DNA of 64,000 bases from an uncultured Methanosarcinales archaeon (GTDB lineage Archaea; Nanobdellota; Nanobdellia; Woesearchaeales; JAGWAF01), in assembly GCA_964597775.1 (NCBI GenBank), contig CAZQZJ010000002.1, positions 357 to 64,356 of the forward strand, read 5' to 3'. The translations under genes were made by a program, and so were the position numbers. Below are positions 2,042 to 50,877 of this stretch, one piece after another. The notes under the pieces are model-generated. The model saw only the letters and a list, made by a program, of their open reading frames with translations. It was not told the DNA's origin and did not search any database. How positions within the stretch are numbered: the first letter of the stretch is position 1; each line of letters opens with the position of its first letter.

Positions 2042-2626
2042 TCACATAACTTTCTTAAGATTTTTTATTAGTTTGTCTAGCACGCGATGAACATCTTCTT
2101 CTGTTTTAGTTCCAGTGCAAACGATTTTGCCATTTGAGAAAAGGAGAAATGTTGCTTTGTCATCAATAAGTTTGTAGACAAGGCCTGGGAATTGTTCAGG
2201 TTCGTACTCAGTATTGTCAAGTTTCATAGCTAAGGTATTGAGATTCAGATCCATGCCGATGCTTCCTGAGGCTACAATGTTTTGGATCTTAATAACAGGG
2301 TCAACTTTGATCTTAATGCCAATCTTTTCAAGTGATTTAATGATCTTTTTGATAGATTCATTAACCTCTTCCATTGTGCGGCCGCCAGTACAAACTACCT
2401 TTCCTGAACTAAAGATAAGTGCTGAGGTTTTTGGATCTTTAATTCTAATGACTAGTCCAGGGAATTGTTCTGGGTTATATTCTGTATTTGAGAGTGTGGC
2501 TGCCATTTTTTCAAGTGGGATGTCATGTTCTAGTGAAGTAGAAATAACAATATTGACAATTCTAATCTCACGTTTTCCTTCTTGTTTTGCTGGTTGTTTT
2601 TTTGCTGCTGGCATAGTTTCTTCCAA
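2042..2626 (-). CDS. tbp: TATA-box binding protein
   Basis: Two internal TBP repeats (EYNPEQFPGLVIRI / EYEPEQFPGLVYKL, NIVASG), 194 aa. Confidence 0.9.
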   Translation of the reverse strand: MEETMPAAKKQPAKQEGKREIRIVNIVISTSLEHDIPLEKMAATLSNTEYNPEQFPGLVIRIKDPKTSALIFSSGKVVCTGGRTMEEVNESIKKIIKSLEKIGIKIKVDPVIKIQNIVASGSIGMDLNLNTLAMKLDNTEYEPEQFPGLVYKLIDDKATFLLFSNGKIVCTGTKTEEDVHRVLDKLIKNLKKVM

Positions 2627-15802: not shown

Positions 15803-16762
15803 TTAAAGTACCAATTCATCTATTTTTGGTGCATCTTTAGGTAGAATCTTGTGAGGGCGTATGGCTGGTGTGAGTCTGATTAGTCGTTTTGTACTGCCGC
15901 CTACTGATCCTTTGACAAGCATGTACTGGTTCTTGATTATGCCATAATGTGGTATGCCGCCAGGTCGTGTTACGTCGCTGCCTTTATCACCTATTTGAAT
16001 GATAAGTGAGTTATGTTGAAATCGTTGATGATATCCATCCTGTCCTGCGTGTGAAACTGTCCAACTTCTATTTCCTGCCCATGGTCCAACATTTCCAGGT
16101 CCACGTTTTGTTTTTTCTGATTTGTGTGAGCGCAGTCCTATGCCAAAGCGTTTTACAGGTCCTTGAATTCCATGACCTCTTGTAATAGCATGGATATCAA
16201 CCTGGTTTCCTTCTGTAAATATATCACGAACACTAATCTCCTTTCCAAGAAGTTGTTGTGCTGCACTCAGTTTGTCCTGGATTGTTTTTCCTCCAATGGC
16301 AAGTTCAAAAATTTCTGGTTTTTTCTTAAGTTGTGCTAGTTTTGGTTGTGTGTGGACAAGTAGTCTTATTTCACTAATATCTGTTGGCATTGTTTTTGTT
16401 TGCGTTTTTTTTGGGAGGATAATTGTGCGTCCAAGATCCTTGTCCATTTTTTCTGCGTTGATCTGTCCTATTTTAGTAAGCCCATATGGTGTAGAATAAT
16501 ATAGGATAATGCTTGCAACGCGTAGTGGAGGGCATTCGAGAATAGTGAATGGGATAGCAATCTTTTGTTTGTTTGTTGGAGAATTAGGTCGATTGTCAGT
16601 AACCATTGCATGTCCCATACCAGCCTTGTATCCAGCAAATCCTAATGGTTTTGGGTCAGGATGTGCAAATATGTAGCTACGCACACGTGCATAGGCTCGT
16701 TTAGCTCTGGCGCGATGCCAGAATTGCATGCTTCCTTTTCTTGGGTTTCTGACGGTTGGCAT
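15803..16762 (-). CDS. rpl3: Ribosomal protein uL3 (start set to internal MPTVRNPRKGSMQFW, the canonical archaeal L3 N-terminus; longer ORF to 16921 possible)
   Basis: MPTVRNPRKGSMQFWHRARA..., FAGYKAGMGH conserved blocks. Confidence 0.9.
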   Translation of the reverse strand: MPTVRNPRKGSMQFWHRARAKRAYARVRSYIFAHPDPKPLGFAGYKAGMGHAMVTDNRPNSPTNKQKIAIPFTILECPPLRVASIILYYSTPYGLTKIGQINAEKMDKDLGRTIILPKKTQTKTMPTDISEIRLLVHTQPKLAQLKKKPEIFELAIGGKTIQDKLSAAQQLLGKEISVRDIFTEGNQVDIHAITRGHGIQGPVKRFGIGLRSHKSEKTKRGPGNVGPWAGNRSWTVSHAGQDGYHQRFQHNSLIIQIGDKGSDVTRPGGIPHYGIIKNQYMLVKGSVGGSTKRLIRLTPAIRPHKILPKDAPKIDELVL

Positions 16763-17221
16763 ATTCGGTAAAAAGGAATTGTTCCTTTTTTCGGGCACGG
16801 TTGTATTATCAGAGCCGTGTCTCCCTTTCTTGGGAATCGAGGTGAGAACAGGTTCGTTTATAAATGTATGGGTGGAATTTTGACTTGTTGTTTTATTGAT
16901 CTGTACCAACTTTTTAAACAAACCATATAAGTATCTATTGATTCAGCAATGGCTTGTCTCGATCTGTATAAAGAGGCCAACCCAAAAGGCAATCTGGTGA
17001 TCAACGTCAAGCCAGCATCATTTCCATTGTAAATCTCCAACCAGGGTTGACTAAGAAGGAGATATCTAAACAGGTTGGAATTCCTTGCAAAAAATACCTT
17101 ACAACCCTTTATCAAAGAGGAGTTTTATTTGTTGAGGGTCAAGGAATAGGGTATGATGCATTCAAATAATATATAATGCGCACTATTCCATTAGATAAAT
17201 GATATCCAATTGTTTTTGGTT

Positions 17222-18643
17222 TTAATTTGTTTCAACAAGACCAAGATTATTCTTGTTTTCCTTTTGATTCACTTCTCGCTTCATGCGAATCCGCAGATGT
17301 GCATAATTAGCAGGGTTCTTAATTCTCTTACAAAGAGAATCTGGCATGCAAATGCCTAGATCTTTGTAATATGGCTGGTTGTCACAATTTGGTGGAAGTA
17401 TAGTGCCTTGTGTTTTAAAATGGTGGTTCAGGTGTCCTTTGATAATAACTTCTCTAAGCGGATCTGGGTTTTTCTTATTCCAGTTTTCAATAAGTAGTTC
17501 TATCTGTGCCTGACTCCAACCTGTTGAGCTAAGGAAATTAGTAAGAATAAAGAGTGCTCTTTTTTTACCATCTTGCATGCCTCCTAAGATGTTCATGATG
17601 CATGGTGGAAAATGTTCAAGAGGGATTGCTTCTTGTGGTGTGTCAAAAGCTTTTTTGATTCCGTCAATTCTTTCTTTATCAGGTGGAAGTTTGTAATCAA
17701 ATGCATTGACAAGTAATCGTCTTGCTTCTCCTTGTGCTACTTTAGTACGATCAAGAAATTTTTCTTTTCCAAGATTAATTGATTCTGGTGTTGCCATTGT
17801 CTTATCAAAAGTGATGATTTGAGATGGGTTAATTGGAATTGAAACCAGTCCACTTTTTTCATTAAGCGAGTATGGCATGCGGTAGAGGTGTCTAGAGGAG
17901 ATAAGGACTGTGTCAATAATAAGGACTTTGAATGGATCAAATTCTTTATTTGTCATTAGATCTTCAGGTTTTTTGTTAAGGATTCCACAGATAGTTGATA
18001 GTTGTTGAAATTCAAGAAGTGCTTGTGCAAGTGGTTCACGAATCATTTCACTAAGATATGCAGCAATACGTCTAGGTCCTTGAGGAAACAGGTGTTGTGT
18101 TGGAATGCTATTAATTTCAGATGGAAATGCCTCAAATGGTACAGCAATGTGGAATCCGTGATTTCCTGAGAATTTGATTGTTGTAGAATTAATGCCGTGA
18201 TAAATAAGGACATTATAAAGGATTTGTGCTGCAATTTGTGAATAAGAAAGGATTGGGCAGTCAATGTCTAAGATAAGATCCCAGCCAATGCGAAGGGTGT
18301 CAAGTTCTTGGCGATGCATTTGTGTGGTGAGGTACATAGGGTTTGTCCATAGTTCTTCTGAGCAATGAAATGATGTGGCGCCTTGTTGAACAAGGGTGAT
18401 CACATCGTTTGCAAATTGTAGGGTGTCTGGTCTTTTTCCATAGTTTCCATCTTTGTATCGGATTGCGATTTCCTTTCCATAGGCAAAATCTACAATTATT
18501 TTTTGTATTTCTGGTCTTTTGTAATATTTGAGAATTGTAGAGGTGCTAAGATCCATAAGCCTAGTAGTGTAGATAATCTTCTTAATTCTTGTGATAAGCA
18601 AAGGCGAGCAGTCGGTTTCAAAAGTGGCGTTCTCCTTTGTCAT
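17222..18643 (-). CDS. Fused DNA primase: PriS catalytic domain + PriL C-terminal 4-Cys (Fe-S) domain
   Basis: PriS motifs LILDIDCPI and FSGNHGFHIAV; C-terminal region with 4 spaced Cys (PPCIMN, PNCDN, GICMP, SLCKR) resembling PriL-CTD. Confidence 0.7.
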   Translation of the reverse strand: MTKENATFETDCSPLLITRIKKIIYTTRLMDLSTSTILKYYKRPEIQKIIVDFAYGKEIAIRYKDGNYGKRPDTLQFANDVITLVQQGATSFHCSEELWTNPMYLTTQMHRQELDTLRIGWDLILDIDCPILSYSQIAAQILYNVLIYHGINSTTIKFSGNHGFHIAVPFEAFPSEINSIPTQHLFPQGPRRIAAYLSEMIREPLAQALLEFQQLSTICGILNKKPEDLMTNKEFDPFKVLIIDTVLISSRHLYRMPYSLNEKSGLVSIPINPSQIITFDKTMATPESINLGKEKFLDRTKVAQGEARRLLVNAFDYKLPPDKERIDGIKKAFDTPQEAIPLEHFPPCIMNILGGMQDGKKRALFILTNFLSSTGWSQAQIELLIENWNKKNPDPLREVIIKGHLNHHFKTQGTILPPNCDNQPYYKDLGICMPDSLCKRIKNPANYAHLRIRMKREVNQKENKNNLGLVETN

Positions 18644-18894: not shown

Positions 18895-21516
18895 ATGGTT
18901 GAGGTGTATCAGTACTCTATTAATGATATTCTTACCATCTTCAAAACCCAAAGAAATGGACTAAATGATAGTGAAGTTCAGGCAAGACTTGTTATATATG
19001 GAAAGAATCTTATTGAGCGTACACACATAATTAATCCATGGGTAATCCTTTTTATGCAATTTGCAAATCCTGTGGTATGGGTGCTTTTTGGAGCAGGTTT
19101 GATTACAGCAGTGCTTAAAGAGTATATTGATAGTATAGTAATTGGGATTGTGATTTTTGTTAACACTATTTTTGGTTTTGTGCAAGAATATCATGCTGAA
19201 AAGTCAATTGAGGCATTGCGTAAAACATTGGGTTTACAGGCTCGCGTGTTTCGTAATGGTAATGTTGTAGTAATTGATGCTACTAATCTGGTGCCTGGTG
19301 ATATTGTTTTGTTAGATACTGGGGATAAGATTCCGGCAGATTGCAGGCTTATTGAATGTGTGAATCTTAAAATTCAGGAAGCGAGTTTGACTGGTGAAAG
19401 TATGCCTGTGAAAAAAACTCTTGAAGCACTCAAGTTTGTTACTGGCGTTGCAAATCAGCAAAATATGGTTTTTGCAAGTACTGTTGTGGTTATGGGTAGG
19501 GGTGTTGGTGTGGTTACTTCAACAGGATTCTCAACCCAGGTTGGTAAGATTGCACATCTTATTGAGGAAGCATTGCCAAATCTAACTCCACTTCAGAAGC
19601 GTCTTAAAGCATTAAGTGTACATGTAACAATTGGTACTATCTTGGTCTGTTTAGTAGTTTTTGTTACTGGTGTGTTTTATAATCAAAATTTGTTCGATGT
19701 TTTTTTGCAATCAGTTTCTCTTGCTGTTGCTGCAATTCCTGAGGGTTTGCCAGCAGTTGTGACAATAACATTAGCATTAGGAGTGCGTATTATGGCTGCA
19801 AATAAGGCTCTTGTTAGAAAACTACCAAGTGTCGAAACCCTTGGTGCATGTACTGTTATTTGTTCTGATAAAACTGGAACTCTTACTCATAATGAAATGA
19901 CTGTGCAGCATCTGTATGTAGATCAGAAGATAATTCATGTAAGCGGAACAGGATACAGATCACAAGGTACACTCTCCTCTCACCCAAAAGAGGTTGATCT
20001 GCTTGTAACCATAGGAGCATTATGCAATAATGCACGATTGGAAAAGAAAGAAAAATTAGGGGTTATTGGAGATCCTACTGAGGCTGCCCTTTTAGTAAGC
20101 AGTGAAAAAGCCGGATTGAATCTAGATATATTGCAAAAACAGTATCCTCGTGTAGATGAAATCTCTTTTTCTAGTGAACGAAAATGTATGACCACAATTC
20201 ATGGCAAAAACGGAAGGTACACATCGTTTATGAAAGGTGCCTCTGAGATTGTGCTTGCGTGTTGCACACATGTTCTTGAGCATGGAACAAAGCAGGTTTT
20301 AAGTGTACAGATGCGTAAGAATATTTTGTCAGTGAATGAGGCTTTTGCCAATCAGGGTTTGCGTGTTCTAGGTTTTGCATACAAAAACATGGCAACAAAG
20401 GCTCATCCTGAAGAAGGGCTTGTATTTGTGGGATTACAAGCTATGATAGATCCTCCAAGGCCAGAGGTAAGAGAAGCAATCAAGATGTGTCATAAAGCAG
20501 GGATTAAGGTTGTTATGATTACAGGTGATCATATAAGCACTGCAGTTGCTATTAGTAAGGAGATTGGAATTTTAGGTAAAGCTGTGAGTGGTGATGAATT
20601 AAGCACATTAAATTTGGATTGTATCATTGATGAAGTTGGGGTATATGCTAGAGTTGATCCAGTGCATAAATTGCGTATTGTTGAGGCACTTAAGAAAAAA
20701 GGGCATGTTGTAGCTATGACTGGTGATGGTGTTAATGATGCGCCGGCGCTTAAATCAGCAGATATTGGTATTGCAATGGGAATGACTGGGACTGATGTTG
20801 CAAAGGAAGCAAGTGTTATGGTTCTTGCTGATGATAATTTTGCCACAATTGTTTCAGCGATAAAACAAGGTCGTAAGATCTATGATAATATTAAGAAGTT
20901 TGTTGTGTATTTGTTAAGTTCAAATATGGGAGAGGTATTAACAGTTTTTGTAGGAGCACTGCTTGGTTTGCCGCTGATCTTGATTGCACGCCAGATCTTG
21001 TGGGTGAATCTCGTGACAGATTTATTGCCAGCACTTGCATTAGGGCAAGAACCAGAAGAGCCTTCACTTATGGAGCGACCACCTCAAAAAGCATCAGATG
21101 AAATACTCTCTTCTAAACAAGGAGTCATCTTAGGTAGTATAGGATTATATATTATGGCAGGTACGCTCCTCGCATTCATGTTAGGTGAACCGTCTACAAA
21201 TCTTCTTAAATCACAGACATTGGCATTTACCACTCTTGTCTTTTTCCAGCTTTTTAATGTATTTTTATTGCGAAGTCAACACCATCATATTTGGGAATTA
21301 AAGATAAATTGGATGTTAATTTTTGGAGTTGGATTAAGTGTGGTACTCCAAATTGCAGTAGTTATGATACCATCATTTTCAGTTATATTTGGTACAACAT
21401 CACTTAATGCATTTGAATGGTTATTTGTTTTAGCATGTTCAAGCAGTTTATTTATTGTAGGAGAATTGTCAAAAGGATTCATTAATCATTGGCAAGCAAG
21501 ATCTCAGGTTCTTTGA
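18895..21516 (+). CDS. P2-type cation-transporting ATPase (SERCA/PMCA-like)
   Basis: DKTGTLT phosphorylation motif, PEGLP in M4, MTGDGVNDAPAL, 873 aa with 10 TM. Confidence 0.9.
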   Translation: MVEVYQYSINDILTIFKTQRNGLNDSEVQARLVIYGKNLIERTHIINPWVILFMQFANPVVWVLFGAGLITAVLKEYIDSIVIGIVIFVNTIFGFVQEYHAEKSIEALRKTLGLQARVFRNGNVVVIDATNLVPGDIVLLDTGDKIPADCRLIECVNLKIQEASLTGESMPVKKTLEALKFVTGVANQQNMVFASTVVVMGRGVGVVTSTGFSTQVGKIAHLIEEALPNLTPLQKRLKALSVHVTIGTILVCLVVFVTGVFYNQNLFDVFLQSVSLAVAAIPEGLPAVVTITLALGVRIMAANKALVRKLPSVETLGACTVICSDKTGTLTHNEMTVQHLYVDQKIIHVSGTGYRSQGTLSSHPKEVDLLVTIGALCNNARLEKKEKLGVIGDPTEAALLVSSEKAGLNLDILQKQYPRVDEISFSSERKCMTTIHGKNGRYTSFMKGASEIVLACCTHVLEHGTKQVLSVQMRKNILSVNEAFANQGLRVLGFAYKNMATKAHPEEGLVFVGLQAMIDPPRPEVREAIKMCHKAGIKVVMITGDHISTAVAISKEIGILGKAVSGDELSTLNLDCIIDEVGVYARVDPVHKLRIVEALKKKGHVVAMTGDGVNDAPALKSADIGIAMGMTGTDVAKEASVMVLADDNFATIVSAIKQGRKIYDNIKKFVVYLLSSNMGEVLTVFVGALLGLPLILIARQILWVNLVTDLLPALALGQEPEEPSLMERPPQKASDEILSSKQGVILGSIGLYIMAGTLLAFMLGEPSTNLLKSQTLAFTTLVFFQLFNVFLLRSQHHHIWELKINWMLIFGVGLSVVLQIAVVMIPSFSVIFGTTSLNAFEWLFVLACSSSLFIVGELSKGFINHWQARSQVL

Positions 21517-33359: not shown

Positions 33360-34577
33360 CTAGGTATCATTCTCTTGTTTATCTTTAACCTTGTATATAG
33401 CAGTTGTGTCGTCATGATAAACTAGTTCAAATCCTTTAATAGTACGTAATGTGTTCATCTGATTAAGCAGTGGGTCTTCAGAGGTTTGGGCAAGTAGTTC
33501 ATAAAGAGGTATAGTGTGGATATCGCTTATTGTTACAAGTACGTATGATACATTTTTTTCTAGGAGAGTCTGTGCAGCAGTGTTTGGATCAGATGTAGTA
33601 AAAAAACTAGCAATAAGTGTTCCTGTGTGTTGAGATGATTGTGGTCCATATCTTTCTTCATCCCAGTATGGTTTATCTTGGATAGTATAGTCACCTAATG
33701 AAAACACTGTTTTATTATCTGCATCATCTGGTTGAATATTTATAGGGACTGTTGTTGCAACAACATTTCTTTTAGTTGTGGCGCGGATTATGTGTCCAAG
33801 TTCCCAATTGGTGATAAATACATCGTTTGGCAGTGTGTGTTTGGTAATCCAGGAAAATGCTTGATCAAGATCTGGTCTGCGTAGGATCCAAGAATATGTG
33901 TGTTCTTCTGTTGTATAGGATATTGTTGGAGCAAATATAAGGTCACAGGCACCAGGAAGATCGGTTTGGTAACAGCGTGTACTATCATTTGTTGTAATAC
34001 CTTGGCATATGCTTTGAAGAGAATAATTTGAAAATGCACAATCCTTAGTGTTCATCTTGTGTGTTGTTCTGCATGGATAATTTGTGGCAATACAGTCAAT
34101 GGTCCTATCAAGAAATCCATAAAGGCAAATGTCTTTGAGTTCAGGATTCTGTATAGAATTACATTGGGTAATATCATCATAAGTAAATGATAAATAAATC
34201 TTGCAATGATCACTAATACTGGTGTTGCTTATCAGGTTGCAGGTATGAGTGTCTGTCTGTTTTGATTCATGACATCCAAATCCTTGGTTGTCCTGAATGC
34301 ATGAGGCATAGTTTCTATTTCTTTGGCAAAGGTTGTTTTTTTCAATACAAGTATTGGTTTGAATTGTGTTATTGACAACCTGTTCAAACAAGCATAGCTG
34401 TTTTTGTGATTCTGTGAGATTATCACAAGAAGGTGTGGGAAATGTTAAAATAGTTTTAGAATCTTGTAGATTCCCTAATAGAATCGTTGGTTCTGATTTA
34501 GTTGCTGCTTGTTCAGATGTACATGCTGCTATAAATATGAGTAGTATACTTATTGTGATAGTAATATAATGTGGCAT
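33360..34577 (-). CDS. Secreted/lipoprotein-like Cys-rich protein, hypothetical
   Basis: Signal peptide with FIAACTS lipobox-like site; >20 Cys. Confidence 0.4.
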   Translation of the reverse strand: MPHYITITISILLIFIAACTSEQAATKSEPTILLGNLQDSKTILTFPTPSCDNLTESQKQLCLFEQVVNNTIQTNTCIEKNNLCQRNRNYASCIQDNQGFGCHESKQTDTHTCNLISNTSISDHCKIYLSFTYDDITQCNSIQNPELKDICLYGFLDRTIDCIATNYPCRTTHKMNTKDCAFSNYSLQSICQGITTNDSTRCYQTDLPGACDLIFAPTISYTTEEHTYSWILRRPDLDQAFSWITKHTLPNDVFITNWELGHIIRATTKRNVVATTVPINIQPDDADNKTVFSLGDYTIQDKPYWDEERYGPQSSQHTGTLIASFFTTSDPNTAAQTLLEKNVSYVLVTISDIHTIPLYELLAQTSEDPLLNQMNTLRTIKGFELVYHDDTTAIYKVKDKQENDT

Positions 34578-34587
34578 GGTAGGTTAT

Positions 34588-35331
34588 TTAGTCATCTTCT
34601 ACTCTTGGTGCGAGAATAAATGCAAGTAATACACGGTCAACAACCTTATAATCAAGTCTAAGAGGGTAATCTTGGTTAAAACTGATTTCGACTGTTTCAG
34701 CAAGTTTGCTGCCGTTCATCATTTTTTTGAGGTATTCAATAGAATATCTGGCACGTAATCTTTCATGTGATGTAGTAATGATTGTATCTTTTGATGCAGG
34801 AATATCAACATTTGCTTTGGATAGGTCTCCTTCAGCGCGAATAACTAGTTTGTCTGGATGTGCAGTAAAGGCAACGCTTTCAGCTACTATTCCAACATCC
34901 TCGATAGCATCATTAAGTGTGTTGCATAGCATTTTGATACTAACAGGAAGATCAAGTTGTGGCACACGTTGTTCTCTTTTATCCATTTCAATGATTGGTA
35001 CAGAGAATGTTCGTGTTGAGCTTGATGCGAGAATGATGTGAAGCATGTTATCCTCTTCTAAGGAGAGTGTAAGTTGGTCGCTTGGTTTTACCCTGCGCAG
35101 AATTTGTTTAAGATTATTAAGATCAATGCAGATTTCAGTATCCTTTTCAAGTGTGTATTCAGAGAAGCAGGATGCAAGAAGTTTAAATACAACCATGGCA
35201 ACATTGGCAGGATCCATAGCAACAAGTTCAATGCTATTTTTCGTGATTTTAAAGCGTGCTTCATTAACAAGTTCTGAGATAACTGCTATGCTATCTTTAA
35301 GATATGCTGGATCAATAAGTGTAAGTTTCAT
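34588..35331 (-). CDS. pcn: DNA polymerase sliding clamp PCNA
   Basis: 247 aa, two-domain PCNA pattern, C-terminal acidic tail. Confidence 0.9.
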   Translation of the reverse strand: MKLTLIDPAYLKDSIAVISELVNEARFKITKNSIELVAMDPANVAMVVFKLLASCFSEYTLEKDTEICIDLNNLKQILRRVKPSDQLTLSLEEDNMLHIILASSSTRTFSVPIIEMDKREQRVPQLDLPVSIKMLCNTLNDAIEDVGIVAESVAFTAHPDKLVIRAEGDLSKANVDIPASKDTIITTSHERLRARYSIEYLKKMMNGSKLAETVEISFNQDYPLRLDYKVVDRVLLAFILAPRVEDD

Positions 35332-37079: not shown

Positions 37080-40067
37080 TTAAGCAATTTTAACATATTG
37101 TTTGTTTACAAAAGCTGTGTCACTTCCATATCGTATTTGATACCAATCTCCAGATTCACCTACAATAGAAACTTGTGTATCACGGTTCAATGCGCCAATT
37201 CTATTGTTCCCTATCTTAGCTGAACTTCTCACATTCAGTCTACCACCTTGTGTTGTAACTACACCTAAATAAGGTGTCAAAACTGGAAGATTAATATGCT
37301 CTGTTTGGGATTGTGATGCCAATTCTTCCTTTTCAGCTTGTTTTGTGTTTGGAAACCATCTTCGTATTTGATATTCACCATTCCTAATGCCTTGGTTTAG
37401 TTTTGCAGTGCTGATAAGGTTGGTATATCTTCTGGGTACAATGGCAGGATCTGAGCCTGCAAATCTATCAACAAATCTTTTTCCATTAATCTCAATGACT
37501 CCCAAAACACCTTCTGTATGGCCATATCCTTGTTTATTAGGCTTTTTTAGTATGACATCTCCAGATTGAATATCCTCTGCATTTTTGATAAGTGGAAGAT
37601 CTCGGGATGACATCTTCCACAGAGAGCCTGTTGCAAAAGACGCATAAGTTCCTCTTAAATATTCTGTGAAATCCTCTTCAGAGTTTGGTGTCCAGGTAGG
37701 TTTGTATCCTGGAAGTGCTATCTTATCTCTTCCTCCTTTTTTTATCTCTGATTTTTGGAACTCAGTATAACATCTTATCTGAACATCTGAACAGGTTTCA
37801 CTTCCTGAAATAATAGTATAGGCATTATTATCAAATCCTCCGATATTGTATTGTGTTCCCTCTCCAGGGTTGTAAAGTGGGATATCAAACCTTCTTCCGC
37901 TTACAGTGTTTGAGAGTTCAGATGAATGTATTTGTAATGCTGTTTCATATGGTTGCGTTTTGACTCCTGGAACCCTGTGAAGACCAAGGTTTTCTATATA
38001 ATTTGCAAAGGCATTTGTTCCCTGTGGTGTTGTTATTCTTTCTCCGAAATATCCTACTACGTTCTGGCCTGCATCTAACATAAGCAGCTCTCCAGCATTG
38101 TTTATTTCATTCTCAAGAATTTCTAATTCACTTCTCAATCGTACAGCTGGGTGTTGCTGTTTCAAATTCCCAATTTGATTTTCTGTTATTCTTATTTGTT
38201 GGTCTAAATCTTCAACTTTTTTTCGAAAAGTGGTTTCTCTTTGTTGAATTTGACGATTGTTTTCTGATGTTTGAGTCAAGACACTTCTTGCTCTCTCTAA
38301 TTCCTTTTCTGCTTTTTCTTTTGATTTTTTAAGATCCTTTAATATACTGAGTTGTTGTTCATAATTTGTTAGATAAGAGGATAATTGACGGTCAGTAGAA
38401 GTCATATGTGAAATCTGGGCTCTTTTTTGTTGTACAAGCTCTGTTTTCTGTGCTATTTGAGAACGTAGTTCTGAGATTTTCTCAGCAGGAATTCTAGAGT
38501 CATAGAATATATTTGTATTATATTCATATTTTCTGGTTTTTCCATCATCTGTTTTGTAGTCAAGCATCATGTCTGTGCCAGCGTATGTTGGAAGAGTTCC
38601 AAATATCTTAGAAAGCAAAGATGGGGTTTTGAAAGGAGTGAGCAGAATCTCTTTACCATTGGTCACAGTTTCCCAATTACCATTTTTTATCCTCAATCTA
38701 CCTTCTGCTGTAGCATGTATTGTTTGGGGTGTTCCTTCTTCTGACCCAGGTTCAAGTATGACTTTTCCTCCTTCAAGATTAATAGATAATCTTGTAGGAA
38801 TGTTTTCTTCAGGACGATCAGGTGATAATTGGTGCATATCTTTAAATCCAGAAAATACTAAATTTCTTTGTTTAAGTTCTGATGTAAAACCTGTTCCAGA
38901 GGCGATAACAATGTCAGAACCCTGCATGAAATAGTTTGCATGTACAGGTAGGTGTTGTTGTGAGATAAATGAGTGGTATATTTCATTCCTTTCTGATCTA
39001 TATCTTCTCTGAATTTCTGCAATCTTATCACGAAGGAAAAACTCATTATCCCTTAACCTTGAAGCTTTCTCCAACAAATCTCTCGCTTCTATTTTAAGAT
39101 CTGATTCCTTAGCTGGATTAAGCTCTCTTTCCATTTCCTGTTCTTTCTCTTTAGCTTGTGTTATCATTTGTGAAGCTTGTTCTCTATTTTTTTTTGCCTT
39201 TGTGTACTGGAGTAACAGCGGTTCTAATATTTCTTTTTCTCTTTGCACAGAAGCCATTATCTGATTATTAGAGATATATCTAATATAAAGTGGATTATCT
39301 GTTGTTGTGTGATGCCAATAACTTACCAATGCATCAGAGTATGGGTCAAGTAGTGTGGGAATTCCTTGTGTAAATCGAATTGATCCCTTGTTGAGGATAT
39401 CTCCTTTTGGAAGATTTATCCTCTCCCCTTTGATAGTGATATCTCTATCAATCTTTGAAATTGTTGTGTCGCTGACAAGTAAGACATTTTCTGTTCTATC
39501 ATAATGAGCTTCTGTTGGTTTATCAAAAGTCACTCCATTGATGGAAGTAAATATTCCATAGATTTTCCCATTCTCAAAAGATAATTCTGTTCCACGTATC
39601 AGAACTCCGTCAATTGATGTTTCTTTATTTTCATCTGCAAAAAGTTCAAATCCAGAACTAGTAGATATCAATTCTCCAGAAAACGAATGGGGATTGTTAT
39701 TATTATCTATAATGTGGAGGTGTCCTGATTCGTCTATTTTAAAAGAAAAGAGGTGTTTTGTATCATAGATGTTAATACGATATTTATCTGATGTGATCCA
39801 TCCCCGTGTATCGAATCTAAAGTCAAACTGTGCATTGCCTGATTGGGATATTTTGACACCTTCTTCGTTAAGCATCTTGATAAATATGTCATTATGTTCA
39901 TTCATATGTTGTGGGTCTTTTGCAAAGAATTTCTTTAAAGCTTCTCTATGATTTTCATTGGTATAATCAATTTCATTCAGATTAAGCTCGATAGATTCTT
40001 CTTGTGCCTGGACTATTCTAAGGAGGAGGATAATCACTAAAATTGTGACAAAGCTACCTTGTTTCAT
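37080..40067 (-). CDS. Large secreted protein: signal peptide, two coiled-coil regions, NlpC/P60-like papain-fold domain, C-terminal SH3b domain
   Basis: SH3b signature (RLNVRSSAKIGNNRIGALNRDTQVSIVGESGDWYQIRYGSDTAFV); Cys...GDVIL...GHTEGVLGV pattern. Confidence 0.6.
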   Translation of the reverse strand: MKQGSFVTILVIILLLRIVQAQEESIELNLNEIDYTNENHREALKKFFAKDPQHMNEHNDIFIKMLNEEGVKISQSGNAQFDFRFDTRGWITSDKYRINIYDTKHLFSFKIDESGHLHIIDNNNNPHSFSGELISTSSGFELFADENKETSIDGVLIRGTELSFENGKIYGIFTSINGVTFDKPTEAHYDRTENVLLVSDTTISKIDRDITIKGERINLPKGDILNKGSIRFTQGIPTLLDPYSDALVSYWHHTTTDNPLYIRYISNNQIMASVQREKEILEPLLLQYTKAKKNREQASQMITQAKEKEQEMERELNPAKESDLKIEARDLLEKASRLRDNEFFLRDKIAEIQRRYRSERNEIYHSFISQQHLPVHANYFMQGSDIVIASGTGFTSELKQRNLVFSGFKDMHQLSPDRPEENIPTRLSINLEGGKVILEPGSEEGTPQTIHATAEGRLRIKNGNWETVTNGKEILLTPFKTPSLLSKIFGTLPTYAGTDMMLDYKTDDGKTRKYEYNTNIFYDSRIPAEKISELRSQIAQKTELVQQKRAQISHMTSTDRQLSSYLTNYEQQLSILKDLKKSKEKAEKELERARSVLTQTSENNRQIQQRETTFRKKVEDLDQQIRITENQIGNLKQQHPAVRLRSELEILENEINNAGELLMLDAGQNVVGYFGERITTPQGTNAFANYIENLGLHRVPGVKTQPYETALQIHSSELSNTVSGRRFDIPLYNPGEGTQYNIGGFDNNAYTIISGSETCSDVQIRCYTEFQKSEIKKGGRDKIALPGYKPTWTPNSEEDFTEYLRGTYASFATGSLWKMSSRDLPLIKNAEDIQSGDVILKKPNKQGYGHTEGVLGVIEINGKRFVDRFAGSDPAIVPRRYTNLISTAKLNQGIRNGEYQIRRWFPNTKQAEKEELASQSQTEHINLPVLTPYLGVVTTQGGRLNVRSSAKIGNNRIGALNRDTQVSIVGESGDWYQIRYGSDTAFVNKQYVKIA

Positions 40068-41807: not shown

Positions 41808-43166
41808 ATGAAACAAATATTCTATGCATTGATTCTTGCTGTTGCAGGATGTGGTATTCAGGATAGATTGGTTGATAAGAAAGAGTATAGAAAACCTGTT
41901 ATTAAAGACAGTATAATATATTCCATTGATAAAAATAGTGATAGATCATTCACTCCTCTTGAAATCAGGATTATTGCAGCTAGCAAAAATAAAACAAAAT
42001 TGTTAAAACCCCCTATTCTTTCACAGATTACAGATCCTGTGACAATGTATGCTGTTCTCAGAGCAAGAACTGGTTCAGGGGAATTGATTATCGCTGATAA
42101 TGATATATTTTCTCTGATGGCACAGGAAGGTGGTGTCTCAGCTAATGATGAAAATCTTCCATGGGATTCAATGCTTGAAGAATGTCTTACATGGTACAAA
42201 GTAGAACCAAGATCATACAATTTTAGTAATACTGGTTCAAGTAGAGAATTCAAGGGTTTTGTGAACATGCCTTTTACAGAAACCATCTGTCGTTCAAGAG
42301 CATCTGAATACCAGGCAGATTCAAATCCTACAAACATCTATCTTTCTGTTATTCCCTCTCTTGTGCCAAGAGAGATCCAACAAGGATTTGGAACAATGAG
42401 GTATAAGGTAGAATTTAATGATGGGAGGAGATGTGTCAAGACAGCTGGTGCAGATGATATGCATCCAACAACGGGTTATGATAATGTTTTCAGAATATCA
42501 AGTGCAATAACAAATATGCATCCTTTGATAAACGCAGCAACATTATGGGGAAATGTGCCTTATTGTTACGGTTCTGCAAGTCCTGTTCATGATGTTAAAC
42601 ACGGAAAAGATGAAAAACTCTGTAAAGAATGTAGCAATCATCAGAGTGAGAATTTTTATTCTGCAGACTGTGCAGATATGGTTAGCGCTGCATTGCGAAA
42701 AAGAGGAATAAAAATTGGATATGATGGAACAGGGTTCTTTGATCCGGCAAGAGGCAACACCTTCCTTATTGCATCAATTCGTCAACAGAGGATAACAGGG
42801 GAGTATCTTGATGTAAACAACCGAATTATTAGATTTGGGCAGGAGGGGGTAAGAGAAGGTGATCTTGTGTTGTGGGATAAGCATATTGGTATCCTTGCAC
42901 TTGACAGCAGTCATATACAGGTTCTTCCTGAGAAAAATAATTTAGAGAGAGATGGTTTATACAACTTTTTTAGTCAATATATCTTAGATTATTTCCTATC
43001 AAGAAAGCAGAAGGTGGCTAAGATTAATAGGCCACTTCCAAATAATGTGCTTGATACGTCAGATATTGTTTATCATCATTTAGCAAAAAATCCATGTTTT
43101 GAATATCTAGGTTCTGCATTCTCTAATATATTTAGGGTTGTAAGAATAAAAGAAAGACGTATATGA
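41808..43166 (+). CDS. Lipoprotein with C-terminal NlpC/P60-like cysteine peptidase domain
   Basis: LAVAGC lipobox; SADCADMVSAAL (Cys nucleophile context) and GDLVLWDKHIGILALDSSHIQV (His motifs) in NlpC/P60 order. Confidence 0.5.
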   Translation: MKQIFYALILAVAGCGIQDRLVDKKEYRKPVIKDSIIYSIDKNSDRSFTPLEIRIIAASKNKTKLLKPPILSQITDPVTMYAVLRARTGSGELIIADNDIFSLMAQEGGVSANDENLPWDSMLEECLTWYKVEPRSYNFSNTGSSREFKGFVNMPFTETICRSRASEYQADSNPTNIYLSVIPSLVPREIQQGFGTMRYKVEFNDGRRCVKTAGADDMHPTTGYDNVFRISSAITNMHPLINAATLWGNVPYCYGSASPVHDVKHGKDEKLCKECSNHQSENFYSADCADMVSAALRKRGIKIGYDGTGFFDPARGNTFLIASIRQQRITGEYLDVNNRIIRFGQEGVREGDLVLWDKHIGILALDSSHIQVLPEKNNLERDGLYNFFSQYILDYFLSRKQKVAKINRPLPNNVLDTSDIVYHHLAKNPCFEYLGSAFSNIFRVVRIKERRI

Positions 43167-46773: not shown

Positions 46774-49239
46774 ATGGCACAAACACAGTCAGAAAACAGG
46801 GTTGTTGCACGTCTTATTGAAGAGGAGATGCAGGTCTCTTATCTCAATTATTCAATGAGTGTGATTGTAGGTAGAGCTCTGCCTGATGTGCGTGACGGTC
46901 TCAAGCCTGTTCATCGTCGGGTCTTGTATACTATGTTTGAAACAGGCTTGTTGCATAATAAACAAACTAAGAAATCAGCCAATGTTGTAGGTAATTGTAT
47001 GGCAAGGTATCATCCGCATGGTGATACTGCGATTTATGATACCTTAGTTCGTCTTGCTCAAGACTTTTCAATGAGATATCCACTTATTATTGGTCAAGGA
47101 AACTTTGGTTCAATTGATGGCGACGCAGCTGCTGCCATGAGATATACTGAAGCAAAATTACATGCTCTTGCTGAAGAACTTATTGAAGATATTGATAAAG
47201 AAACAGTTTTGTTTACACCTAATTTTGATGGGTCAGCAAAGGAACCAACAGTGTTTCCTTCAAAGGTTCCTAATCTTCTTGTTAATGGTTCATCAGGTAT
47301 TGCTGTAGGTATGGCTACAAATATGCCGCCGCATAATCTCAAAGAGGTTTGTGCAGCTATCATAAAGCGAATTGAGAATCCGAATAACACGATACAGGAG
47401 TTGATGGATATCATTATTGCACCAGATTTTCCTACTGGTGGAATTATCTGTAGCAGAGCAGGAATTATAGAAGCATACAATACTGGTAAAGGTAAATTAT
47501 TATTACGAGCAAAAACACATGCTGAAGAAGTTAAAAATAATCGTCAGGATCTGATTGTTGATGAAATACCCTATCAAGTAAACAAGACGCAGCTTATTGA
47601 AGATATCGCTGTACTGGTTCGGGATAAGGTAGTGCAAGGTATTACTGACATACGTGATGAATCAGATCGTGATGGAATGCGTATTGTTTTCGAATTAAAA
47701 AATGGTGCTAATCCTGACGTTGTGCTCAACCAGCTATTTAAGCATTCGCGGTTGCAAACAACCTTTGGTATTATCAATTTGGCTTTGGTTGATAATCAGC
47801 CAAAAATACTGAGCCTACCCCAATTATTAGATTATCATATTGAGCATCGTGTGGCAATCGTCAGAAAACGTTCTGAATTTGGTCTTGTAAAAGCAAAGGA
47901 ACGTCTCCACATCCTTAACGGTTTTATTGTGGCATTAGATGATATCGACAGCGTGGTAAAAATAATTAAGGCAGCAAAGAGTCCGCAACAAGCTGCTCAG
48001 TATCTTATGGAACAATTTAGGTTAAGTGAGATCCAAGCCCAATCCATTCTTGATATGAAATTGCAGCGTATTACAAGTTTAGAACAAGATAAGATTCGTG
48101 AGGAGCAAAAAAATGTTACTATAAGAATCAGCGAGTTAGAGATTCTGCTTTCTTCTCGCAAGAATATTCTTGATGTTATCTGTATTGAGGTTGTGGATTT
48201 GGCACAGCGATTTGGTGATGCTAGAAAAACTCAGGTAATTGAGAGCGAAGGCGATCTTGAGGTTGAAGATCTTATAAAACCTGAGGATGTTGTTGTTACA
48301 TTTACTCATTCAGGATATGTTAAGCGCTTGCCTATTGATACGTATAAACAGCAGCGTCGTGGTGGGAGAGGGGTCATTGCTGCTGAAGCAACAGAAGAGG
48401 ACTTCTTAGATCATCTTTTTGTAGCAAATACGCATTCCTGGTTGCTTGTCTTTACTGATACAGGTAAAGTTCATTGGTTAAAGGTGTATCAGATTCCAGC
48501 TGCATCCAGAACAGCGCGGGGTACATCAATTGTAAACCTGGTTGAAATGCAATCTGCTGAAAAGGTAACTGCAGTGCTTCCAGTCAAAACATTTAGTGAT
48601 GAGCAGCTTGTCTTTTTAGGAACACAGGATGGAACAGTCAAGAAATTATCGCTTAGCCATTTTTCAAATCCTCGTCGTGGTGGTATTGTTGCAATGAAAC
48701 TCGAGGATGGTGATCGTTTAGTTAATGCCCTAATTACCAATGGAGATAAGGATATTATTGTTGGTACAAAAAAAGGTCTTGCGATCAGGTTCCACGAATC
48801 TAATGTTCGAGAGATGGGAAGAACTGCAATTGGTGTAAGGGGTGTTAAACTAAGGCAAACTGATGCAGTTATTGGGGTAGAAATTGCAGATAATGCAAAA
48901 TATCTTCTTACTATTTCAAGAAATGGAATTGGGAAGAAAACACAGATGGGAGAGTATAATCGCACTAATAGGGGTGGCATTGGTGTAATTAATATGAAAG
49001 TCACTGATAAGTCAGGTGAAGTTGTAGCTGTTCTGTCTGTGGATGATGAGGATGAAATCATGTTTATCTCAAAGATGGGGATTGCTATTAGGATTCCAGT
49101 TTCTGGAGTATCAAGTATTGGCAGAAACACCCAAGGTGTAAGAGTGATGAAGCTTGAAAATAATGATGAGGTTGTTGCTGCTGCAAAGATTGCAAAGAGC
49201 AAGGCTAATGGTTCTGATGAAAGCAATAGCAGTCTGTAA
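46774..49239 (+). CDS. gyrA: DNA gyrase subunit A
   Basis: HPHGD, active-site AAMRYTEAKL, GyrA-box-like region and C-terminal beta-pinwheel repeats; 821 aa. Confidence 0.9.
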   Translation: MAQTQSENRVVARLIEEEMQVSYLNYSMSVIVGRALPDVRDGLKPVHRRVLYTMFETGLLHNKQTKKSANVVGNCMARYHPHGDTAIYDTLVRLAQDFSMRYPLIIGQGNFGSIDGDAAAAMRYTEAKLHALAEELIEDIDKETVLFTPNFDGSAKEPTVFPSKVPNLLVNGSSGIAVGMATNMPPHNLKEVCAAIIKRIENPNNTIQELMDIIIAPDFPTGGIICSRAGIIEAYNTGKGKLLLRAKTHAEEVKNNRQDLIVDEIPYQVNKTQLIEDIAVLVRDKVVQGITDIRDESDRDGMRIVFELKNGANPDVVLNQLFKHSRLQTTFGIINLALVDNQPKILSLPQLLDYHIEHRVAIVRKRSEFGLVKAKERLHILNGFIVALDDIDSVVKIIKAAKSPQQAAQYLMEQFRLSEIQAQSILDMKLQRITSLEQDKIREEQKNVTIRISELEILLSSRKNILDVICIEVVDLAQRFGDARKTQVIESEGDLEVEDLIKPEDVVVTFTHSGYVKRLPIDTYKQQRRGGRGVIAAEATEEDFLDHLFVANTHSWLLVFTDTGKVHWLKVYQIPAASRTARGTSIVNLVEMQSAEKVTAVLPVKTFSDEQLVFLGTQDGTVKKLSLSHFSNPRRGGIVAMKLEDGDRLVNALITNGDKDIIVGTKKGLAIRFHESNVREMGRTAIGVRGVKLRQTDAVIGVEIADNAKYLLTISRNGIGKKTQMGEYNRTNRGGIGVINMKVTDKSGEVVAVLSVDDEDEIMFISKMGIAIRIPVSGVSSIGRNTQGVRVMKLENNDEVVAAAKIAKSKANGSDESNSSL

Positions 49240-50362
49240 TAAAGGTCTTGAGGCATATTGTGCTCAAGAATTAAAAGCGATTCTTCATACAAAACTAAGT
49301 ATGTTGGATCGAATTATTCTTTTTGAATCTGATCTTGTATCAATTGCATTGTATGCGTATCGATCTCAGGTTGCTAAAAGAGTACTTCTACTTTTAGGTC
49401 ATATAGGGCATCACGGTAATCTTGAAGAGGCTCTTGAAAATCTTATTAAGAATATAGATTTCTCGCCTTATTTTATAAATGGAGTAACCTTTTGTGTTCG
49501 CACTGACAAGCTTGATTATAAAATATATCCAAGTCAAGAAATAGAGCAGCTTGCAGGTGAATTAATTTTTACTAAAACACAGGCAACAGTTTCGCTTAAG
49601 GATCCAGGTCTTCTTATACGAATTATTGTTACACCAGGCGATATTTTTATCACTCTTGACACTGCAAAAGAAGAGCTTACTAAAAGAGATTACAAGATAT
49701 TTGCAGGATCAGATCCATTCAATGCTTCCACCTCTGCAGCCTTTGCCTTATTTTCAGGATTTAATGCAAAGAAATCATGTCTTGATATTTCATGTGGTGC
49801 TGGTCTGCTTGTTATAGAGTCTGCTCTTATAGCAACAAATCGTTCACCGCATTATTTTCGCAAGGAGAAGTTTCTCTTTCCGCAATGGACCTGGTCAGGT
49901 GTTGATTGGAATAAAAAGTTTGAGCTGTGGGATAAAAAGATTAATAGTGCCAAGCCTAAATTGCAGGCAATTGATACTCAGAATGTTCATGTTGAGGCAA
50001 CTAAGAAAAATGCAAAAATTGCTGGGGTAATCAAATCACTAATTATTGCCAGAATCGATATAGAATGGCTTGATACTAAATTCAACAAATCAAGTATTGA
50101 TCTTGTTATGTCAATGCTCCACTTTCCTGCTACTTCGCTAAATAAGATTGAAGCATGGATTTCTAAGTCTTCTCATCAAGCTGCATATATTCTTAAGCCA
50201 GGGGGAATAATAACTCTTCTTACAAAATATCCATCCCAAGCTAAATTACTTGTTTCAAAACAAGGGTTTAAGCTTTGTAATGAAGTCCAATTCTTTCAAG
50301 GCGATGATTGTTGGACTGCGCTTGCATGGGAAAACACAAAAAGTGATTATAAAAACGCTTAA
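49217..50362 (+). CDS. THUMP-domain SAM-dependent RNA methyltransferase (Trm14/RlmL/COG0116-like), motif IV degenerate
   Basis: N-terminal ferredoxin-like+THUMP architecture, motif I DISCGAGLLVIESAL; HFPA in place of DPPY. Confidence 0.55.
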   Translation: MKAIAVCNKGLEAYCAQELKAILHTKLSMLDRIILFESDLVSIALYAYRSQVAKRVLLLLGHIGHHGNLEEALENLIKNIDFSPYFINGVTFCVRTDKLDYKIYPSQEIEQLAGELIFTKTQATVSLKDPGLLIRIIVTPGDIFITLDTAKEELTKRDYKIFAGSDPFNASTSAAFALFSGFNAKKSCLDISCGAGLLVIESALIATNRSPHYFRKEKFLFPQWTWSGVDWNKKFELWDKKINSAKPKLQAIDTQNVHVEATKKNAKIAGVIKSLIIARIDIEWLDTKFNKSSIDLVMSMLHFPATSLNKIEAWISKSSHQAAYILKPGGIITLLTKYPSQAKLLVSKQGFKLCNEVQFFQGDDCWTALAWENTKSDYKNA

Positions 50363-50412: not shown

Positions 50413-50439
50413 TGATCTAACTCTTACTGTCTTATCCAG

Positions 50440-50800
50440 GGTGCAGACGAAGCCAACGGTAACATCATATTGTTTGGTGTCTCTGAGGAAAGTCTGCCCA
50501 CATCCAGGATCTTTAGTTCAAATCTAAAGATTCTGCAGACAAGCGGTACCTATCCAAACAATAGGATCCAGTAATGGATGGCAACATCACCGAAACGACA
50601 CGGCCATATGCAGATGAGAATGACGCAGTGAAGTCCTTGGTAACAGGGATGAGTTAACCTGTAGAATGATGCATAATGGATGCGATGAAACGGATAGCCC
50701 TATCGTGTGCAAGGCAAACAAGATGCAAGTAGTTCATAAAAACATGTCTGCGTGCTCTTCACATGCCGCTTAGTTGAATGCTTCGGCAGATCATCGGAAG
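50440..50800 (+). ncRNA. rnpB: Candidate RNase P RNA
   Basis: Non-coding 480-bp gap with TATA; CR-I-like GAGGAAAGUCUGCCC at 50485-50499; distal GGCAGAU (50785-50791) can pair with GUCUGCC to form a P4-like helix. Confidence 0.35.
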
Positions 50801-50877
50801 GATGTTATAATCTTTCTTTGGGTCTGACAAAAGGCAGCTTATATGCGCCCTGGATCTTTTTTAAGGTGAGGAAGAGT

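Follow-up and report, generated by a model that had tools for sequence, protein, structure and literature searches.

The gene at positions 17222 to 18643 of the 64-kb stretch analyzed here (the window), which comes from contig CAZQZJ010000002.1 (GenBank assembly GCA_964597775.1), encodes with high probability the cell's replicative DNA primase in the single-polypeptide form of DPANN archaea, in which a PriS-type archaeo-eukaryotic primase (AEP) domain is tethered to PriL's C-terminal domain (CTD). Both Pfam domains exceed their curated cut-offs, and the agreement of motifs and domains is confirmed to lie far above chance. The same two domains, PF01896 and PF04104, are matched in 33 of 33 family members, and the alignment of these sequences provides the conservation counts given below. 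The protein is one more ordinary ortholog; its family has already been described, phylogenetically analyzed, and biochemically characterized.

An earlier note on this DNA, made from the sequence alone, had placed the gene at 17222 to 18643 with no strand given. An uninterrupted reading frame indeed fills this interval, but it lies on the minus strand, and its upstream end probably extends beyond the true start.

17222..18643, minus strand: maximal open reading frame (ORF) of the fused primase, 473 codons, uninterrupted
17222..18556, minus strand: probable coding sequence of the fused primase, 444 amino acids (aa) plus stop, from M30 of the maximal ORF, checked by translation

Residue numbers follow the maximal ORF, so that M30 is the probable first residue. 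Translation very probably starts at M30 (nucleotide 18556) to give a product of 444 aa, because a 100% identical database protein (P0001) has this length, because all 32 aligned homologs start at or near M30 with no conservation of the upstream residues, and because the ORF of the closest relative (L004; 70% protein identity) has no room to extend upstream. The low predicted local distance difference test (pLDDT) scores of residues 1 to 29 (<50) support the same start. All motifs quoted in the earlier note were located in the translation (DIDC at 126, FSGNHGFH at 158, PPCI at 346, PNCDN at 418, GICMP at 430, and SLCK at 436).

The N-terminal part of the protein is a PriS catalytic core, as the earlier note had proposed. 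The PF01896 (DNA_primase_S) model scores 29.6 bits at residues 138 to 272 (cut-off, 26.8), and the NCBIfam PriS equivalog model NF001641 matches the same region (E 2e-5). An AlphaFold2 model built with the 33-sequence alignment has a mean pLDDT of 83.7, with most of the catalytic domain above 85, and a Foldseek search with the full model retrieved Mycobacterium smegmatis Prim-PolC, human Pri1, and the PriS subunits of Pyrococcus furiosus, Pyrococcus abyssi, and Sulfolobus solfataricus with E values of 1e-7 to 1e-4. The catalytic domain carries the three AEP motifs.

17744..18556, minus strand: PriS-type AEP catalytic domain, residues 30 to 300 (Pfam, NCBIfam, and Foldseek)
18260..18268, minus strand: AEP motif I, D126-I-D128, the metal-binding acidic pair within LILDID, invariant in 33/33
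18149..18169, minus strand: AEP motif II, S159-G-N-H-G-F-H165 (sxH, with the nucleotide-binding Ser and catalytic His), invariant in 33/33
17879..17914, minus strand: AEP motif III region, D244-TVLISS-R251-H252-LY-R255, with the third acidic residue and the elongating-nucleotide residues

In the family profile, motif II aligns with FSGNRGFH of the S. solfataricus PriS (1zt2_A), and the motif III region aligns with 'ID..V.ID.KRLIRIPNSLHGKSGL' of the same chain. Residues D244 (of IID), R251, H252, and R255 are invariant throughout the alignment. A conserved zinc-knuckle cluster was not found in the catalytic half of the 33 aligned sequences, where C129 is the sole invariant N-terminal cysteine.

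The structural matches also bear on whether the protein could be a repair-type primase-polymerase (Prim-Pol) of the LigD-polymerase or Prim-PolC kind, acting in nonhomologous end joining or gap filling rather than in replication. In the full-length Foldseek search, M. smegmatis Prim-PolC (E 9e-8) and LigD polymerase domains rank at the top, and the LigD_Prim-Pol model PF21686 is weakly matched in 22 of the 33 family members. Likeness among AEP catalytic cores is, however, expected across the superfamily, and PF21686 reaches only 16.3 bits in the window protein (cut-off, 27.4) while PF01896 passes its own threshold. Repair enzymes of this kind lack the PriL Fe-S domain that the window protein has, and no Ku or ligase gene adjoins the primase. 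In addition, NEQ395 of Nanoarchaeum equitans, the characterized member of the family, acts as a primase and is the only AEP in its genome (PMC10250227). A repair function is thus very unlikely.

The C-terminal half of the protein contains the four-cysteine module that the earlier note had likened to the Fe-S domain of PriL. PF04104 matches residues 338 to 442 with 25.2 bits (cut-off, 22.4), so the PriL-CTD similarity whose absence the note had named as one part of its refuting condition is present, and the region has the all-helical PriL-CTD fold (PF04104/p58C). The four cysteines are invariant in 33/33 with a spacing of 72/12/6, and each aligns to a cysteine of the P. abyssi PriL (9f26_B). 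The elements of this half are as follows.

17627..17788, minus strand: interdomain connector, residues 286 to 339, a short conserved helix followed by a variable hinge of low confidence
17303..17626, minus strand: PriL C-terminal (Fe-S) domain, residues 340 to 447
17600..17602, minus strand: C348 (FPPC), predicted first [4Fe-4S] ligand, aligned to FPPC of 9f26_B
17549..17566, minus strand: K360-K361-R362-A-L-F365, basic/aromatic patch, predicted holder of the initiating nucleoside triphosphate (NTP) and primer 5' end
17384..17386, minus strand: C420 (PPNC), predicted second [4Fe-4S] ligand, aligned to PPNCD of 9f26_B
17348..17350, minus strand: C432 (GIC), predicted third [4Fe-4S] ligand, aligned to the LCTPD cysteine of 9f26_B
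17330..17332, minus strand: C438 (SLC), predicted fourth [4Fe-4S] ligand, aligned to the HCK cysteine of 9f26_B
17225..17302, minus strand: C-terminal tail rich in Lys/Arg, variable in length and modeled as partly helical

Within the basic/aromatic patch, K361 and R362 are invariant and F365 is nearly invariant. The N-terminal domain (NTD) by which PriL docks to PriS is absent, since PriL models match only from about position 206 of 360 onward, and only about 55 residues separate the catalytic domain from the PriL-CTD. The connector helix, E306 to D316 (EARRLLVNAFD), has two invariant residues (L310 and D316) and four nearly invariant ones (E306, A307, A314, and F315), and it is followed by hinge residues 323 to 332 with a pLDDT below 50. 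The distance from R255 to C348 is 93 residues here and ranges from 90 to 105 residues across the 33 homologs. The C-terminal tail is conserved in neither sequence nor length, and its pLDDT falls below 60 after approximately residue 460.

The catalytic fold and motifs are common to the window protein and the heterodimeric PriS-PriL primases (P. abyssi 9f26, S. solfataricus 1zt2/5of3, and human 4rr2), as are the four-cysteine Fe-S CTD and the FPPC and PPNCD…C.PD..C signatures of PriL. The window protein differs from them in being one chain, with neither the PriL-NTD nor a conserved Cys/His zinc-knuckle cluster, and sequence identity in structural alignments is about 14 to 16%. The closer comparison is with the fused primases of DPANN archaea. 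The fusion in N. equitans was pointed out by Iyer et al. 2005 (as cited by Raymann et al. 2014, PMC3914693) and also by Berthon et al. 2008. Raymann et al. proposed that nanosized archaea share the fusion as a derived character, and Dombrowski et al. 2020 (PMC7414124) placed Woesearchaeota in DPANN Cluster 2, all of which was reported to carry the fusion. The fused primases of Undinarchaeota and DPANN Cluster 2 described in these two studies have the same architecture and belong to the same taxonomic group, with nothing substantive setting the window protein apart.

Schneider, Bergsch & Lipps 2023 (PMC10250227) characterized NEQ395 as a monomeric, brown [4Fe-4S] protein with Mn2+-dependent primase activity, which makes RNA primers of about 9 nucleotides (nt) at a triplet with a central T. 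Its PriL domain is required for initiation and not for elongation, its domains fail to complement each other in trans, and a shorter linker leads to abortive products of 4 to 5 nt. The D87/D89 double mutant is inactive, while R301/R303/F306 mutants lose priming and keep elongation. The residues reported as essential (H58; D87/D89; S119/H125; D194; H202/R205; C289; R301/R303/F306; C364/C376/C384) have the following counterparts by spacing in the window protein, in the same order: H93; D126/D128; S159/H165; D244; H252/R255; C348; K360/R362/F365; C420/C432/C438.

Both proteins are single chains with an N-terminal AEP domain and a C-terminal PriL-CTD with four cysteines, and both lack the PriL-NTD. 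The offsets from S to H (6), D to H (8), and H to R (3) are identical, and, counted from the first cysteine, the basic/aromatic patch occupies +12, +14, and +17 in each, with Lys here and Arg in NEQ395 at the first of these positions. The cysteine spacing is 72/12/6 here versus 75/12/8 in NEQ395. The window protein is about 50 aa longer (444 versus 393 aa): H165 and D244 are separated by 79 residues, compared with 69 in NEQ395, owing to a longer helical insert (helices 188 to 229), and R255 and the first cysteine by 93 residues, compared with 84. The sources differ as well, a mesophilic groundwater woesearchaeote here and a marine hyperthermophile for NEQ395.

A mechanism can be drawn from homology with NEQ395 and with the primases of eukaryotes and archaea, from which the enzymatic activity, cluster binding, and primer-length counting of the window protein are predicted. 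The covalent link would take over the docking job of the missing PriL-NTD. Residues D126, D128, and D244 would hold two divalent metal ions, and S159, H165, H252, and R255 would bind the incoming (elongating) NTP. The PriL-CTD may then swing on the hinge at residues 323 to 332 and deliver both template and initiating NTP to the active site via K360/K361/R362 and F365, which would allow the first dinucleotide to form. If the PriL-CTD stays on the primer 5' end, the length of the tether would cap primers at roughly 9 nt. A [4Fe-4S] cluster is predicted to be held by the four cysteines and probably has a structural or regulatory role. The monomeric, Mn2+-dependent synthesis of RNA primers of about 9 nt is known for NEQ395, and by analogy we infer it for the window protein.

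Several points weigh against this interpretation. A Foldseek search with the CTD model alone ranks PriL Fe-S domains first, but not significantly (E ∼3). The Fe-S cluster is dispensable in vitro in NEQ395, in which the four Cys-to-Ala mutants are still active (PMC10250227), and the residue equivalences with NEQ395 were set by spacing, not by alignment. The connector is predicted to be a short conserved helix plus coil here, while that of NEQ395 was modeled as one 30-residue helix, and the mechanics of the tether may therefore differ. Finally, the lack of a second primase gene was observed over the 64-kb window, and its lack genome-wide is an extrapolation from there.

Within that window, the search for other primase genes was negative. 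Profile hidden Markov models (HMMs) of the PriS half and the PriL half, run against a six-frame translation, match only the fused gene, and the next best matches have E values of 0.046 and 0.13. Pfam scans of 20 other ORFs in the window, including nonribosomal ones of PriL size, found no primase domain. The earlier statement that no separate priL lies adjacent thus extends to all 64 kb, and a canonical priL, the other part of the note's refuting condition, is excluded for these 64 kb. A sole-primase state has been reported in the literature for N. equitans and more generally for Cluster 2.

The PriS-PriL fusion is standard in Woesearchaeota and related DPANN archaea, which contradicts its description as rare in the earlier note. 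A word-indexed protein search returned >4,000 clusters at 90% identity. The best 120 of these encode proteins of 427 to 623 aa, and those with a source name are labeled Woesearchaeota, Nanoarchaeota, or Nanoarchaeia. When 1.84 billion representatives at 50% identity were searched exhaustively, 739 clusters had an E value of ≤1e-3 and 325 one of ≤1e-30, nearly all of which cover both domains. Members at 37 to 40% identity, with full-length matches of E 1e-77 to 1e-97, are named Aenigmarchaeota or Aenigmatarchaeota. In species-representative genomes, 197 stretches encoding relatives were confirmed, and the best 80 of them belong to metagenome-assembled genomes (MAGs) of Woesearchaeota, Nanoarchaeota, or Nanoarchaeia, some under placeholder titles. 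The DPANN affiliation that the note had drawn from the fusion is borne out by these relatives and by the more distant Aenigmarchaeota members. A 100% identical protein and hundreds of orthologs are thus already in public databases.

The same searches decide whether the fusion might be an artifact of assembly or gene calling, in which an adjacent priS and a short priL were merged by a sequencing or frameshift error. One nanohaloarchaeon does have two adjacent genes that together align to the fused primase (Raymann et al., PMC3914693), and some database entries cover one half of the protein, such as P0217 (293 aa, marked partial). The 444-aa protein identical to P0001, however, was found on five contigs, with one ENA assembly and two separate Logan run assemblies among their sources, and hundreds of independent assemblies show the same continuous architecture over query positions ∼5 to 435. 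The connector helix with its invariant residues would also be unexpected in a misread intergenic spacer. With independent assemblies giving the same continuous protein, the probability of an artifact is practically negligible, and this explanation was rejected in practice in favor of a genuine fused primase.

Members of the family vary in other respects. Inteins with a LAGLIDADG homing endonuclease interrupt the PriS domain of P0135, P0141, P0161, and P0237 (883 to 1,019 aa; Intein_splicing and LAGLIDADG_3), while the window primase has no intein. Many other representatives carry an extra insertion of about 60 to 90 aa around query positions 175 to 205.

The titles of the source genomes deserve a separate remark. 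Many species-representative MAGs titled "uncultured Methanosarcinales archaeon" (L005, L007 to L009, L011, and others), third-party assemblies of which some have "binchicken" in their isolate names, carry the Woesearchaeota-type fused primase in the same synteny, and these titles appear to be placeholders or mislabels. A metagenome assembly from Hainich groundwater (ENA ERZ1292641) contains a contig identical to the one studied here.

The gene lies in a conserved chromosomal context. The window is clearly archaeal chromosome, with an archaeal RNase P RNA, a ribosomal-protein operon that includes SecY, genes for TATA-binding protein (TBP), PCNA, ScpB, GyrA, and Hef, and a flat GC content of 35 to 41%. 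The downstream neighbor of the primase is the first gene of the ribosomal-protein operon.

15803..16762, minus strand: rpl3 (ribosomal protein L3), first gene of the ribosomal-protein operon, matched by PF00297 on the identical contig

The start of L3 was set at MPTVRNPRKGS after the L3 of the closest relative. Among 67 related loci with enough downstream flank, rpl3 and then rpl4 directly follow the primase on the same strand in 57, and the usual upstream neighbors in the related loci (L004 to L083) are the Hef helicase-nuclease and an M48 peptidase. Woesearchaeota and Nanoarchaeia thus share a conserved order of genes, namely Hef, M48 peptidase, fused primase, rpl3, rpl4 (15803 to 18556 in the window).

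This setting is informative on a further alternative, that the gene encodes the primase-polymerase of a plasmid or virus, like PolpTN2 of Thermococcus pTN2 or ORF904 of pRN1, and replicates that element rather than the chromosome. PolpTN2 and pRN1 ORF904/RepB' are likewise monomeric AEPs whose catalytic domain is tethered to a helical domain (PriL-CTD-like or a helix bundle) that binds the initiating nucleotide, and the principle is the same. They differ in being plasmid-borne and of independent origin, whereas the window gene sits on the chromosome, in synteny with the ribosomal operon. The helix bundles of pRN1 and RepB' are not known to contain an Fe-S cluster. The conserved site between Hef/M48 and the rpl3-rpl4 operon, the flat GC content across the region, and the lack of an integrase or other element gene alongside the primase all speak against a mobile element. 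The family also follows the phylogeny of DPANN Cluster 2, and the PolpTN2 fusion of plasmid pTN2 is unrelated, with no sequence similarity to the DPANN fused primases (Raymann et al., PMC3914693). We consider a mobile-element enzyme highly improbable and retain the chromosomal replicative primase.

No description of the primase-rpl3 adjacency was found in the cited literature; Berthon et al. 2008 linked PriS, PCNA, and Gins15 with a different set of ribosomal genes. In these minimal cells, the linkage could mean that the capacity for lagging-strand priming is coregulated, or even cotranscribed by read-through, with ribosome synthesis, and the variation in tether length (90 to 105 residues, against 84 in NEQ395), together with the conserved connector helix (EAxxLxxxAFD), could make primer length differ between lineages, since the linker tunes it in NEQ395. 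Taken together, these ideas are speculative and we think them rather unlikely; if true, the primase-rpl3 pair would add a further case to the replication-translation gene linkage proposed by Berthon et al. The gap between the primase stop and the rpl3 start is unusually long (459 nt, 16763 to 17221) and is not conserved in relatives, and cotranscription is therefore unproven. The only Rfam match in the gap is a subthreshold C/D-box-like one at 16934 to 17026 (SNORD35, 18.8 bits against 36, E 0.24).

For the window, the finding adds little beyond a correct annotation and a useful taxonomic marker, as a fused primase assigns the contig to DPANN Cluster 2 or Undinarchaeota (here Woesearchaeota). 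The interest lies with the family, as the minimal archaeo-eukaryotic primase and a tractable model for the role of the PriL-CTD and its Fe-S cluster in primer initiation and length counting. NEQ395 has already served to make and test this case, and the window sequence suggests no new mechanism. A mesophilic Woesearchaeota ortholog with a different connector could nevertheless serve as a comparison enzyme.

Two observations concern insertions near the primase. In the closest relative, a two-gene cassette (79-aa and 128-aa ORFs; L004 5416 to 6038) lies between the primase and rpl3, and by eye it looks like a VapBC-type toxin-antitoxin pair. In the window, a P-type cation-transporting ATPase (18895 to 21516, plus strand, 873 aa, with E1-E2_ATPase and Cation_ATPase_N/C domains) lies between the M48 peptidase and the primase; a homolog at that place was found in 0 of 80 related loci, and the gene looks like a lineage-specific insertion.

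Other features of the window are as follows.

2042-2626, minus strand: TBP (Pfam scan)
34588-35331, minus strand: PCNA, 247 aa
45542-46684, plus strand: ScpB, 380 aa, its ScpB domain confined to residues 12 to 155 and followed by a long C-terminal extension
50439-50850, plus strand: archaeal RNase P RNA, 96.7 bits

A full-length gyrA (46774 to 49239, plus strand) encodes a PF00521 domain (E 3e-163) and six GyrA C-terminal repeats. No gyrB was seen adjoining it; the next ORF (49154 to 50362, 402 aa), which overlaps the end of gyrA, was left out of the domain scan. Gyrase was reported as absent from the fused-primase lineages known at the time, Nanohaloarchaea and ARMAN-4/5 (Raymann et al. 2014, PMC3914693).

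Several large proteins, predicted to be secreted or to be lipoproteins, are encoded at 33360 to 34577 (minus strand, 405 aa), 41808 to 43166 (plus strand, 452 aa), and 37080 to 40067 (minus strand, 995 aa); the two that were scanned, of 405 and 452 aa, gave no Pfam match. Such large secreted proteins are typical of DPANN surface proteomes.
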